From: Alphaproteobacteria bacterium
Lineage (GTDB): Bacteria; Pseudomonadota; Alphaproteobacteria; Sphingomonadales; Sphingomonadaceae
Assembly (NCBI GenBank): GCA_019239415.1
Contig: JAFAZW010000006.1
Span: 1,959-65,958, forward strand
Direction: 5' to 3'
DNA: 64,000 bases
This document shows, one piece after another, positions 32,512 through 46,984 of this stretch. Numbering within the stretch: position 1 is the stretch's first letter; the number at the start of each line of letters is the position of its first letter. The notes below the pieces were generated by a model. It was not told the DNA's origin. It was given only the letters and a program-made list of their open reading frames with translations, and did not search any database. Position numbers and translations under genes: made by a program.

Positions 32512-32632
32512 CCCCTCCCGGGAAGGGAGGGGCCGGGGGTGGGTCCGCCGAAGGCGGGCAAAACACCGGGTCAGCAGAAGGCCTCGCTACGCTCGCCTAC
32601 CCACCCCTGACCCCTCCCTGCCAGGGAGGGGG
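32512..32632. repeat. family-C inverted-repeat element, copy C1 (121 bp)
   Basis: The left terminal inverted repeat (TIR) is CCCCTCCCGGGAAGGGAGGGGCCGGGGGTGGGT (32512..32544). Its inverted partner is ACCCACCCCTGACCCCTCCCTGCCAGGGAGGGGG (32599..32632). The element fills the ribH / transporter convergent spacer. Confidence 0.85.
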
Positions 32633-40517: not shown

Positions 40518-40609
40518 CCCCTCCCTGGAAGGGAGGGGTCGGGGGTGGGTAGCCCGAAGGGCTCGCTTCGCTCGCGACCCACCCCTCGCCCCTCCCTTCC
40601 AGGGAGGGG
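40518..40609. repeat. family-C inverted-repeat element, copy C2 (92 bp)
   Basis: The left terminal inverted repeat is CCCCTCCCTGGAAGGGAGGGGTCGGGGGTGGGT (40518..40550). Its inverted partner is ACCCACCCCTCGCCCCTCCCTTCCAGGGAGGGG (40577..40609). Confidence 0.85.
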
Positions 40610-41070: not shown

Positions 41071-42344
41071 CCGAAGATCCTCCGAACCCGATCCAGCCCC
41101 GCGACGAGCGCGTCGATGTCGCGCGGACCGTTATAGACGCCGAAGCTGGCGCGGGCGGTCGCGTCGACGCCCAATCGCGCCATCAGCGGCTGCGCGCAAT
41201 GATGGCCGGCGCGGATGGCGACGCGGCTCTCGTCCAATATGGTGCCGACGTCGTGCGGATGCACCCCCTCGACGGCGAAGCTGACGATGCCGGCGCTGTC
41301 CTCGGGGCCGAACAGGCGGACGCTGTTGAGGCCGCGCAGCGCATCCCGCGCCTGCCCCACCAGCGCATCCTCGTGGGCCGCGATCGCCTCGAGGCCGATC
41401 CCTTGCACATAGTCAATGGCGGCGGCGAGGCCGAGAACGCCGACGACGTGCGGCGTGCCGGCCTCGAAGCGCGCCGGCGGCGCGGCGTAGGTCGTCCTTT
41501 CGAAGGTGACCCTGTCGATCATCGCGCCGCCGCCCTGCACCGGCGGCATGGCCGCGAGCAGGTCGCCGCGGCCCCACAGCACGCCGATGCCGGTCGGGCC
41601 GTACAGCTTGTGGGCGGAGAAGACGTAGAAGTCGCAGCCGAGCGCCGCGACGTCGACCGGCATGCGCGGCACCGCCTGGCACCCGTCGAGGAGAAGGAGC
41701 GCGCCGACCTTGTGCGCGATCGCGGCGGCGCGCCGGGCGTCGAGGACCGAGCCGAGCACGTTCGAGACGTGGGCGAGGGCGACGAGCTTGTGCCGCTCCG
41801 TGAGCATCGCTTCGGCCGCCTCGAGGTCGATGCGGCCGTCCTGCGTCAGCGGCGCCACGTCGATGACGGCGCCCGTGCGCTCGGCGACGAGCTGCCAGGG
41901 CACGATGTTGGAATGATGCTCGAGGACCGAGAGAAGGATGCGGTCGCCGGGCTTCAGGAAAGTCCCGCCCCAGCTCTGCGCGACGAGGTTGATCCCTTCC
42001 GTCGCGCCGCGGACGAAGACGATCTCCTCCGGCGCCGGTGCGCCGAGAAAGGCCGCTACCTTGCGCCGCGCGGCTTCGAAGGCGAGCGTCATCTCCGCCG
42101 AGCGCTGGTACACGCCGCGGTGGACGGTGGCGTAGGTCTCGGCATAACCGGCGGTGATGGCGTCGATCACGGGCCGCGGCTTCTGGGCGGTGGCGGCGGT
42201 GTCGAGATAGGCCCAGCCGTCGGGGATGGCGGGGAAGTCGGCGAGGAGGTCGAGGGGGGCGACGTCGATCCCTCTCCCTTTGCGGGAGAGGGTATTCTTC
42301 GCGTCAGCGAAGGGGGGGTGAGGGGACGAGATCGCAGAATCCAT
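41067..42344 (-). CDS. sufS: cysteine desulfurase SufS
   Basis: YLDTAATAQKP, the PLP-Lys context SAHKLYGPTGIG, and RAGHHCAQP are present. The only plausible start is ATG 42344, which lies inside repeat C4 and gives a ~25-aa N-terminal extension. Confidence 0.9.
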   Translation of the reverse strand: MDSAISSPHPPFADAKNTLSRKGRGIDVAPLDLLADFPAIPDGWAYLDTAATAQKPRPVIDAITAGYAETYATVHRGVYQRSAEMTLAFEAARRKVAAFLGAPAPEEIVFVRGATEGINLVAQSWGGTFLKPGDRILLSVLEHHSNIVPWQLVAERTGAVIDVAPLTQDGRIDLEAAEAMLTERHKLVALAHVSNVLGSVLDARRAAAIAHKVGALLLLDGCQAVPRMPVDVAALGCDFYVFSAHKLYGPTGIGVLWGRGDLLAAMPPVQGGGAMIDRVTFERTTYAAPPARFEAGTPHVVGVLGLAAAIDYVQGIGLEAIAAHEDALVGQARDALRGLNSVRLFGPEDSAGIVSFAVEGVHPHDVGTILDESRVAIRAGHHCAQPLMARLGVDATARASFGVYNGPRDIDALVAGLDRVRRIFG

Positions 42345-42404
42345 TGCCCTCACCCTCCCACCGCTTCGCGGCGGGCCCCTCCCTCTCTCGCAAGGGGAGA
42401 GGGG
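42270..42404. repeat. family-C-related inverted-repeat element, copy C4 (135 bp), overlapping the sufD 3' and sufS 5' coding ends
   Basis: The left arm is CCCTCTCCCTTTGCGGGAGAGGG...GGGGGGGTGAGGGG. The right arm is CCCTCACCCTCCCACC...CCCCTCCCTCTCTCGCAAGGGGAGAGGGG. It is an imperfect inverted repeat with hairpin termini. Confidence 0.7.
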
Positions 42405-43781: not shown

Positions 43782-44607
<826 letters not shown>

Positions 44608-44621
<14 letters not shown>

Positions 44622-45104
44622 TCGACTCGGTCCTAAGCCCCTCCCCTTCAGGGGAGGGGTTGGGGTGGGGCTTGTTCCATCGGCGGGGCGTTTGACCCAG
44701 CACGATAAGAAGGTGCCGCAGCACCCCGTCCAGGTTTCGCATTACATCACCGTTCGTGATGCGCACGATTCGGTAGCCACGGCAGCCGAGGATGTCGTCG
44801 CGGATCCGATCTTTGGTCTCGTCGTGGGTGTCGCCGTCCACCTCGACGATCAGCGCCCGTTGGGGGCAGAGGAAATCAGCGATGAAGCAGCCAATGACCG
44901 ACTGACGGCGGAACTCATGGCCGCCGAGCTGCCCGTTGGAGAGGTTTCTCCAAAGGCGCTTCTCCGGCTCCGTCGGGTTTCGGCGCATTTCGGCGGCGAG
45001 CGCGTGGAGGCGGCGGAGCTGCTCGACGGACAGGCCCCACCCCAAACCCCTCCCCTGAAGGGGAGGGGCTTCCTTACGCCAGCCCTTGTCCTCGTAGGGA
45101 CCGT

Positions 45105-45108
<4 letters not shown>
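44608..45108 (-). CDS. DUF559 endonuclease-domain protein (Vsr/restriction-endonuclease-like fold)
   Basis: The core is [17 protein letters not shown]...[35 protein letters not shown]...[20 protein letters not shown]. The ATG overlaps the sufB stop (ATGA) and the stop lies 12 nt inside sufC. GC3 is visibly lower than in the neighbours. Both ends of the ORF are encoded by the terminal repeats, so the true start may be internal. Confidence 0.78.
44638..45068. mobile_element. 431-bp element: DUF559 gene bracketed by ~34-bp family-C-type terminal inverted repeats (copy C3)
   Basis: The left terminal inverted repeat is CCCCTCCCCTTCAGGGGAGGGGTTGGGGTGGGG (44638..44670). The reverse complement of the right one (45035..45068) is CCCCTCCCCTTCAGGGGAGGGGTTTGGGGTGGGG. 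They are identical except for one extra T. Mobility is inferred, not shown. Confidence 0.5.
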
Positions 45109-46573
<1,465 letters not shown>

Positions 46574-46577
<4 letters not shown>

Positions 46578-46984
46578 GACGGCACCCGCGCCAGCTGTTC
46601 GAGGCTGACCGCCTGGAGCGCGCCGCGCACCGCGCCGTTGACCACGCCCATGTGCGGGCGGACGGCGCAGGCGCGCTCCAGGGCGCAGTCGTGGCGGCCG
46701 TGGTCGACGCAATTGGTCATCGCGATCGGCCCTTCGACCGCCTCCACGATGTCGGCGAGGCTGATCGCCTGCGCTCCCCGGGCAAGGCGGAAGCCGCCGC
46801 CGGCGCCGCGCGCCGTCGCCAGCAGGCCCGCCGCGGCGAGGCGGCCGGTCAGCTTCTGCGCGGTCGGCAGCGGGATGCCGGTCTCGGTCGCGAGCAAGGT
46901 GGCGCTGAGCCACGCGCCGGCCGGGTAGCGGGCAGCGGCGGCGAGGAGCACGACCGCATAGTCGGAAAGGGAGGTCAGGCGCAT
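46574..46984 (-). CDS. Rrf2-family transcriptional regulator of the suf operon (IscR/SufR-like)
   Basis: [19 protein letters not shown]-terminus and a wHTH domain. There is a Cys cluster ([16 protein letters not shown]) for an Fe-S ligand. The stop overlaps the sufB start. Confidence 0.85.

Follow-up and report, generated by a model that had tools for sequence, protein, structure and literature searches.

A DUF559 nuclease gene between hairpin/G-rich inverted repeats at the sufB–sufC junction of Sphingomonadales: a candidate REPIN/RAYT-like unit with a PD-(D/E)XK enzyme

Analysis of a 64,000-nucleotide stretch of an alphaproteobacterial genome assigned to the Sphingomonadaceae (GenBank assembly GCA_019239415.1, contig JAFAZW010000006.1, positions 1,959 to 65,958; hereafter the window) revealed a unit of ~430 bp at the junction of sufB and sufC, composed of one Vsr-like DUF559 nuclease gene placed between hairpin/G-rich inverted repeats. 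On balance, we regard it as somewhat probable that this unit is the nuclease-bearing member of a system resembling the REPtrons, i.e. the pairs formed by doublets of repetitive extragenic palindromic (REP) sequences (REPINs) and REP-associated tyrosine transposases (RAYTs), in which the enzyme is a DUF559 protein of the PD-(D/E)XK type instead of an HUH tyrosine transposase. This explanation is favoured because the nuclease gene is single-copy and flanked by a dispersed repeat, different paralogues are accompanied by different repeat types, the units persist vertically, and the termini are lost together with a dead nuclease. The gene of the unit is promoterless; the unit is usually co-oriented with the host operon and often takes over the overlapping stop/start of the upstream gene. 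Its termini of ~40 nt consist of a hairpin, a spacer of 2–3 nt and a G-tract, and the same termini form, without the gene, dispersed doublets of 90–120 bp.

The unit had been described in an earlier note made from the letters of the window alone, and that observation is correct in all essentials. The minus strand is the orientation of all genes at the window suf locus, which includes the following features:

44608..45108, minus strand: DUF559 open reading frame (ORF), 166 amino acids (aa)
44701..45009, minus strand: DUF559/Vsr-like PD-(D/E)XK domain, aa 34–136 (Pfam)
45036..45071, minus strand: 5′ terminal inverted repeat, AAGCCCCTCCCCTTCAGGGGAGGGGTTTGGGGTGGGG in the coding orientation; hairpin, TTT spacer and G-tract; translated
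44635..44670, minus strand: 3′ terminal inverted repeat, CCCCACCCCAACCCCTCCCCTGAAGGGGAGGGGCTT in the coding orientation; translated within the ORF
45072..45108, minus strand: leader, 37 nt from the sufB stop to the 5′ repeat; translated as part of the ORF
45105..46580, minus strand: sufB, upstream host gene, 3′ part shown (same context in loci L001 and L002)
43782..44621, minus strand: sufC, downstream host gene, ATG at 44621

The two arms are 36 nt long each and 92% complementary. In each, TT(T)GGGGTGGGG comes after a CCCCTCCCC-TTCA/TGAA-GGGGAGGGG hairpin whose loop measures 4 nt, and, as had been noted, the arms differ by a single extra T (TT at one end and TTT at the other). The hairpin pattern occurs nine times in the window versus 0.16 expected, a number reached by none of 100 shuffles. 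The relationship with the host genes also agrees with the earlier coordinates: the ATG of the ORF (45108..45106) overlaps the sufB stop (45107..45105) as ATGA, while its stop codon begins at nt 12 of sufC, the ORF end at 44608 being 14 nt into that gene. The acidic core motif is present, and the G+C content at third codon positions is lower than that of the neighbours, as claimed (0.78–0.81 vs 0.89–0.92 in sufB, sufC and sufD). The assertion that only one gene lies between the termini holds for the DUF559 domain, but not for the ends of the ORF, which reads through both repeats, so that repeat-encoded peptides sit at the protein ends. An identical protein (P0001) from an Alphaproteobacteria metagenome-assembled genome (MAG) is present in NCBI, labelled “endonuclease domain-containing protein”. 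Comparison of the whole window with Rfam gave no curated RNA family at the gathering score.

The predicted protein matches the Pfam family DUF559 (PF04480) over aa 34–136 (E=2e-28; 98.8 bits vs a cut-off of 20.6). In the Pfam scan of the ORF this was the sole domain: only ~30 residues precede it, and neither a NUMOD/helix-turn-helix (HTH) module nor a transposase domain was detected. Residues E49, D78, D91, H95, D100 and D104 are invariant in 22 homologues (alignment A1), and those that align with the catalytic acidic and histidine positions (equivalents of Vsr D51/H69/D97) are among them. Comparison of the family profile with the PDB retrieved a solved DUF559 structure, 3HRL (E=1e-21), and, as a weak match, the catalytic domain of I-Bth0305I, 3R3P (E=0.007); in the latter profile alignment D78 lines up with the mutated D196 position. 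The AlphaFold model of the DUF559 protein is of low confidence (mean pLDDT 53.8), the alignment being too shallow. The earlier note knew of no assigned biological role for DUF559. This needs qualification, as a relation to homing endonucleases was already in the literature: I-Bth0305I is a Vsr-like EDxHD homing endonuclease that cleaves both DNA strands beside the site where its intron inserts (PMC3239194), and a survey of PD-(D/E)XK enzymes groups VSR, DUF559 and I-Bth0305I together (PMC3424549). What stands is that a search of the open-access literature found no link of DUF559 to repeats.

Each arm is predicted to fold as a hairpin of 10–12 bp (9–10 bp by the repeat description). The suf mRNA is predicted to form a stem of ~37 bp between the two arms, with the ORF looped out (minimum free energy −255 kcal/mol, z = −6.5). 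A canonical G-quadruplex motif of four tracts makes up the G-rich half, GGGGAGGGGTTTGGGGTGGGG, at both termini, on opposite strands, in all 58 units that were aligned for the selection analysis described below. In the window this motif (GGGGAGGGGTT(T)GGGGTGGGG) lies at 45036–45060 and 44646–44670, and would be half sequestered by the upstream C-tract hairpin. When quadruplexes were allowed, ViennaRNA predicted −44.6 kcal/mol for the quadruplex versus −26.9 kcal/mol for the hairpin, with RNA parameters.

The unit recurs at unrelated loci. A protein search retrieved 1,831 relatives, and many of the best 120 (67–100% identity) span the entire ORF, repeat-encoded ends included. Scanning one genome per species yielded 80 loci, all but two of which are labelled Sphingomonadales or unclassified Alphaproteobacteria/Proteobacteria; the genera named are Sphingomonas, Novosphingobium, Sphingobium, Sphingopyxis, Sphingorhabdus, Stakelama, Allosphingosinicella and Hankyongella. 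The same termini are kept at most of these loci. The unit occupies the sufB–sufC junction in 70 of the 80 and other junctions in the remaining 10, namely that between an acetolactate-synthase-like gene and the next gene (three loci), yebC–ruvC (three), ATP-grasp–alpha-E (two), prfA–prmC (one) and one more. At the non-suf loci it fills a short gap between co-oriented genes, the inverted repeats are 36–41 nt long (perfect in L068, L075, L077 and L079), and, where the junction was read (L068, L075 and L078), the ORF starts at an ATG of its own, just within the first repeat. About 25 nt of the leader accompanies the unit at one of these loci (L026). Sphingomonas sp. YR710 carries two copies, at suf and at yebC–ruvC. 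No transposase-like ORF was found within or beside the units examined.

A genuine presence/absence difference is seen at the ATP-grasp–alpha-E junction: in Sphingomonas parapaucimobilis the two genes overlap directly (TGATG), while in L046 and L049 the unit lies between them, and the only possible repeat in the comparison of filled and empty sites is ATG. An empty yebC–ruvC site was sought in a plasmid collection, which gave no Sphingomonadales match. In a neighbour-joining tree the units group mostly by site, with a few jumps between sites: L026 is nested in a suf clade, L046 and L049 fall in the Novosphingobium suf clade, and L077 (prfA) falls in the ruvC clade. The prfA–prmC site of S. parapaucimobilis carries a different inverted-repeat element (GCGCGGAGACGCGGAGACGCGGAGG ... 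CCTCCGCGCCTCCGCGC) without a DUF559 gene, within a 177-nt gap (L187 390–520). The same junction holds the family-C unit (family C being the repeat family of the window unit) in a Sphingomonas MAG (L077) and, in Azospirillum brasilense (H108/H109; NZ_CP032346.1, ~1331806–1332823), a 45% identical DUF559 gene, which is oppositely oriented. Two MAG contigs, L011 (labelled Beijerinckiaceae) and L018 (labelled Gemmataceae), carry a Sphingomonadales-type suf operon with the unit (77–78% identity), and their unrelated-taxon labels are probably binning errors.

Short elements without a gene share the termini of the unit. Eleven of them (89–115 bp) were found in the fetched loci, with the same two termini including the inner CYTGTC extension and with centres of 19–46 nt. 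These centres are unrelated to each other and to the inner ends of the unit, with which they share at most 5–6 nt; the short elements are therefore not simple deletion derivatives of the unit. In orthologous elements at sufD–sufS perfect termini are kept while the centres drift, and thus the short-element termini are maintained independently of recent insertion. Three of the eleven lie in frame inside sufC, at codon ~64. The window itself contains two short elements:

32512..32631, strand not assigned: short element C1, doublet of hairpin and G-tail termini, CCCCTCCC-N5-GGGAGGGG-N2-GGGGGTGGGT (long-palindrome fold z = −4.5)
40518..40609, strand not assigned: short element C2, same sister subfamily as C1 (fold z = −9.7)

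The earlier note had given C1 and C2 the same architecture as the termini of the unit and had taken the unit as their candidate autonomous partner. The architecture is indeed common to both, but the sequence is not: in C1 and C2 the stem is 8 bp and the loop 5 nt long, and the tail is GGGGGTGGGT. They also share, with an element of L004 (9590–9610), a conserved interior (32560–32600 in C1 and 40550–40577 in C2) of the form GGGTGGGT-A/C-G-G/C-CGAGCG-T/A-AGCGAG, unlike the family-C doublets, whose centres are unrelated to each other. Judging by these sequences, C1 and C2 represent a sister subfamily and not the exact partner of the window DUF559 gene. The parallel drawn in that note with REPIN/RAYT systems thus survives in a modified form: the unit is discrete, found at unrelated loci and matched by short elements with the same termini in related genomes, but its cognate elements are not C1 and C2.

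Specific pairing of paralogues with repeats was examined in one genome, S. parapaucimobilis YK209, deposited as “plasmids” that appear to be the whole genome. It encodes three DUF559 paralogues, located at sufB–sufC, gatB/yqeY–dnaG and pntAA–pntAB, each flanked by a different hairpin type: CCCCTCCCC-TTCA-GGGGAGGGG followed by a G-rich tail, CCCCTCCCGC-N4-GCGGGAGGGG, and CCTCCCCG-N3-CGGGGAGG, in which the G-rich tail is further off, after a small second hairpin. Strict patterns identified 2, 5 and ~4 elements of the three types in 100 kb, at different loci, and BLAST located each type at ~90–140 places, a count inflated by cross-family matches. The expectation of the note that each paralogue has its own short-element type was borne out here, with three paralogues and three dispersed types.

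The association extends to distant DUF559 genes. Among 18 loci encoding proteins 32–60% identical to the query, 11 have flanking inverted-repeat scores of 20–98, versus a maximum of 17.5 and a median of 9.5 in 72 shifted control windows within the same loci. The arms measure 56 nt in Deinococcus, ~90 nt in Pseudanabaena, 66 nt in Novosphingobium THN1 and 35 nt in Qipengyuania, where the architecture is that of family C. In Sinorhizobium meliloti the arms (108 nt, 95% identical) recur at at least 40 places in the genome, and their hairpin-plus-G-tail core is present in 285 records of Rhizobium, Sinorhizobium and Azospirillum. An exhaustive search (E<=1e-3) gave 20,356 DUF559 clusters at 50% identity. 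Most of 42 hand-picked representatives (matches reaching the query termini) have hairpin-type peptides (PxPxxGEG, PPLxGGG etc.) before and after the domain, and many cluster representatives that are 40–60% identical carry peptides such as PxPxxGEG at both ends.

The DUF559 nuclease is under purifying selection. In the 58 aligned units the coding core shows a three-base periodicity of conservation, with a ratio of nonsynonymous to synonymous divergence (dN/dS) of ~0.18 and a median proportion of synonymous differences (pS) of 0.68, which is near saturation. In both termini, by contrast, conservation is at least 90% at each base and lacks such periodicity, which implies a constraint on the nucleic acid and not on codons. 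Across 30 closely related suf loci, DUF559 distances correlate with those of SufD (Spearman 0.56) as well as those of the host genes do with one another (0.48–0.55); across all 53 suf loci the correlation with SufB and SufC is 0.14–0.17, versus 0.47 for the SufB–SufC pair. We read this as mostly vertical descent of the suf copies with occasional replacement. In the window, the copy at sufB–sufC is intact, has long resided there with largely vertical inheritance, and is not a recent insertion.

Replacement at this junction is directly visible in eight loci in which a second DUF559 gene lies in tandem (e.g. L042 5465–5938, L047 5471–5965, L058, L073, L055, L056 and L067). In seven of these second copies, which were translated and aligned, the ORF is intact and ~35% identical, H95 is lost, and in some D91 is lost as well. 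They have no inverted repeats at the DNA level, yet a homologue of the translated first repeat survives in their coding sequence as the peptide APxLQKxGRGW. Loss of catalytic residues thus coincides with loss of the inverted repeats, and from these alignments the termini appear to decay along with the nuclease. The second copy may be an exapted inactive copy; that these copies carry a distinct repeat family of their own was rejected, given the missing repeats and catalytic residues.

Further peculiarities of the suf locus were recorded. In nine suf loci (L002 4478–4531; L013, L014, L022, L023, L039, L053, L057 and L059) the DUF559 ORF runs into a second copy of the last 16–17 codons of sufB, with a constant joint 6 nt after the 3′ repeat; the window copy has no such tail. 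The two copies differ at 3–16 of 51 nt but at 0–1 amino acid, and between species the second copy differs only synonymously. It follows that the peptide is under selection or that the first copy has repeatedly converted the second. Small unrelated ORFs that follow the SufB-tail copy start at an overlapping TGATG/ATGA. Partial duplicates of the sufC 5′ end (22–51 codons) lie beside the unit, in addition to a full sufC, in L014 (4921–4986), L020 (4855–4986), L018 (1323–1463), L017, L045, L069 and L070, which suggests repeated rearrangement or acquisition at this junction.

Palindromic elements also occupy other positions in the operon. The window sufC contains an in-frame palindromic insert of ~96 nt (~44337–44432) at codon ~64, of a different repeat type (GCCGGACTTGATCCGGC hairpins), and family-C doublets lie in frame at the same codon in three other species (L035 1464–1577, L040 5908–6003 and L059 6257–6363); this codon is a shared hot spot for palindromic elements inside an essential gene. 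The sufD–sufS junction of the window (42271–42404) is filled by another hairpin doublet (CCTCTCCC...GGGAGAGG with GGGGGGGTGAGGGG), read through by both predicted ORF ends. Elsewhere (L012 7652, L020 7964 and L024 8245) this junction holds family-C doublets, the right edge of which makes the sufD stop overlapping the sufS ATG.

How a DUF559 nuclease might act on the repeats that flank it can be outlined only by inference. The enzyme would recognise the folded termini (hairpin, cruciform or G-quadruplex) and nick there; nicking would mobilise or copy units and doublets, or drive repair that keeps the copies alike, and host replication, repair and ligation would complete the reaction. Several findings weigh against this explanation. 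PD-(D/E)XK nucleases cut DNA, but we know of no strand transfer by such enzymes, which to our knowledge are not transposases on their own, so a complete transposition mechanism is missing. The only short elements of the window are C1 and C2, both of the sister subfamily, and derivation of short elements from the unit by internal deletion was ruled out by their unrelated centres. The 10 non-suf junctions revealed no consistent target-site duplication, and a metagenome pattern scan found no empty sufB–sufC junction in Sphingomonadales, which bears on mobility at this site; the 86 empty junctions it recovered were rejected as Sphingomonadales empty alleles, all being outgroups (SufC identity <=60% vs >=64%). 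Nor is every DUF559 gene flanked by inverted termini, a point that the earlier note had raised as a question: among the 18 distant loci, flanking repeats are absent at E. coli YcjD, in Neisseria and Photobacterium, and at some Azospirillum and Sinorhizobium copies. To these are added the inflation of the BLAST counts in YK209 and the possibility that these genomes also carry a RAYT-type gene; in a search for RayT as a competing enzyme no Sphingomonas record appeared among the matches listed.

The main rival explanation, which we consider unlikely, casts the gene as a homing endonuclease gene of the free-standing kind, a parasite of the repeats or of the operon junction. It would cut doublets or empty conserved junctions, e.g. 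sufB–sufC, and be copied in by homologous repair with the doublet halves or conserved flanks as homology arms, while something else mobilises the repeats. Such an origin is consistent with the relation of the domain to I-Bth0305I (PMC3239194), although the N-terminal DNA-binding modules of that enzyme are missing from the DUF559 protein. Repeated invasion of sufB–sufC, with old inactive copies beside new active ones, and the fact that distant taxa share occupied junctions (prfA–prmC being used by both Sphingomonas L077 and Azospirillum) point the same way, and unrelated short-element centres would be expected if the gene had entered a doublet. Insertion sequence (IS) elements targeting REPs are known (PMC8450116). 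The poor tracking of SufB and SufC distances across the 53 suf loci suggests replacement, but within clades long-term purifying selection and largely vertical inheritance prevail, the SufD–DUF559 correlation equalling that of host genes. In addition, a genome usually has a single copy for each repeat type, although tens to hundreds of doublets could serve as targets, and it is not obvious why the termini of a passive target should stay invariant in gene-less doublets.

Two other explanations are less likely. In one, quite improbable in our view, the repeats serve the suf operon as structural elements of its RNA or DNA (processing, stability, translational coupling), DUF559 has been domesticated as a repair nuclease that is expressed together with the Fe-S assembly genes, and the mobile appearance is historical only. 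The predicted pairing of the repeats in the mRNA, the conservation of the suf copy across the order under purifying selection, and the selectively maintained copy of the SufB C-terminus with which the ORF ends in many genomes argue for such a function. Yet the unit also resides in unrelated operons, its termini form gene-less doublets at many loci, including in-frame positions inside genes, and a suf-specific role leaves the paralogue-specific repeat families unexplained. The other, to which we give the least credence, treats the repeats as resembling miniature inverted-repeat transposable elements (MITEs) moved in trans by a conventional transposase, with DUF559 a passenger trapped between the termini and kept for a host function such as repair. 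Terminal inverted repeats accompanied by short doublets do resemble a MITE family, PD-(D/E)XK enzymes are not known as transposases on their own, and several DUF559 genes lack flanking repeats. Against this, a DUF559 gene would need to have been trapped independently, and by different repeat types, in Sphingomonadales (three in one genome), Deinococcus, cyanobacteria and Rhizobiales; the units examined have neither a transposase-like ORF in or beside them nor a consistent target-site duplication, and the termini decay where the nuclease is inactive.

A broader proposal, which we put forward tentatively as possible though less than probable, is that DUF559 nucleases are the catalytic partners of widespread, previously unrecognised minimal selfish replicators. 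These would comprise units of ~430–700 bp and gene-less doublets of 90–120 bp with ends of structured DNA (hairpin/G-quadruplex switches), copied or homogenised by PD-(D/E)XK nicking and not by known transposase chemistry. If so, orphan REP-like repeats in Alphaproteobacteria, Deinococcus and cyanobacteria would gain their missing enzyme. Among bacterial families that lack an assigned role, DUF559 is one of the larger, and systematic paralogue-specific pairing gives both this family and the enzyme-less repeat families a testable function. If the REPtron-like explanation is true, the REPIN/RAYT principle of a vertically inherited nuclease maintaining a population of short replicators extends to an enzyme of unrelated fold, an explanation is at hand for the hypothetical proteins rich in “PSPxGEG” peptides that GC-rich genomes encode, and operon junctions of essential genes (suf, ruvC, prfA, dnaG and pnt) are flagged as habitual landing sites. 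Should the termini act as hairpin/G-quadruplex switches, they would offer a natural model for structure-specific DNA recognition.

Comparison with known systems shows partial likeness to several of them. MITEs with an autonomous partner and in-frame palindromic elements (Correia, Rickettsia palindromic elements and REP inserts in ORFs; PMC3733652) are likewise short dispersed elements with terminal inverted repeats. As with in-frame palindromic elements, some of the short elements described here lie in frame in essential genes (sufC codon ~64), and, as with a MITE and its partner, there is a longer gene-bearing version with the same ends. Unlike in the latter pairing, the short elements have centres that do not stem from the long unit, and, unlike IS elements and MITEs, the unit has no DDE-type transposase and no clear target-site duplication. 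Like the EDxHD homing endonucleases (I-Bth0305I, 3R3P; PMC3239194), the unit encodes a Vsr-like domain, as judged by profile (E=0.007), in which acidic and histidine residues are conserved; it likewise has the setting of a selfish gene and lies beside highly conserved genes. It differs from them in the absence of a NUMOD/HTH region, in its location at chromosomal operon junctions rather than in an intron, intein or phage, and in being bounded by inverted repeats at several unrelated sites.

Rhizobium-specific intergenic mosaic elements were reportedly described by Osteras 1995, and for these and other orphan REP-like repeats we know of no enzyme. The arms of the S. meliloti DUF559 gene (108 nt) resemble such repeats in being dispersed, in part across Rhizobium, Sinorhizobium and Azospirillum; no link of these or of orphan REP-like repeats to DUF559 is reported in the open-access literature. 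Many REP-like hairpin repeat families have no known enzyme, and orphan families have been noted (PMC3733652).

The closest counterparts are the REPtrons. They are said to have been described by Nunvar 2010 and by Bertels & Rainey 2011. The unit differs from them in its enzyme, a PD-(D/E)XK Vsr-like DUF559 protein encoded by the only ORF of the unit and not an HUH Y1 (IS200/IS605-like) transposase. Its termini begin with (A)AGCCCCTCCCC instead of carrying a GTAG or CGTC tag, and each consists of a hairpin and then a G-tract that together form a G-quadruplex motif; furthermore, the gene lies within host operons, in their orientation and with translational coupling. In other respects it follows the pattern of REP/REPIN-RAYT systems, which have been surveyed (PMC3733652, PMC5581495): hairpin repeats in inverted orientation enclose a small nuclease gene, usually present as one copy, and the flanking repeat is also dispersed as singlets and doublets (here in related genomes, the window holding only the sister-subfamily elements C1 and C2). 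Each paralogue has its own repeat family (here in one genome, YK209), inheritance is long-term and largely vertical, and the elements reside at operon 3′ ends and junctions and occasionally inside ORFs.

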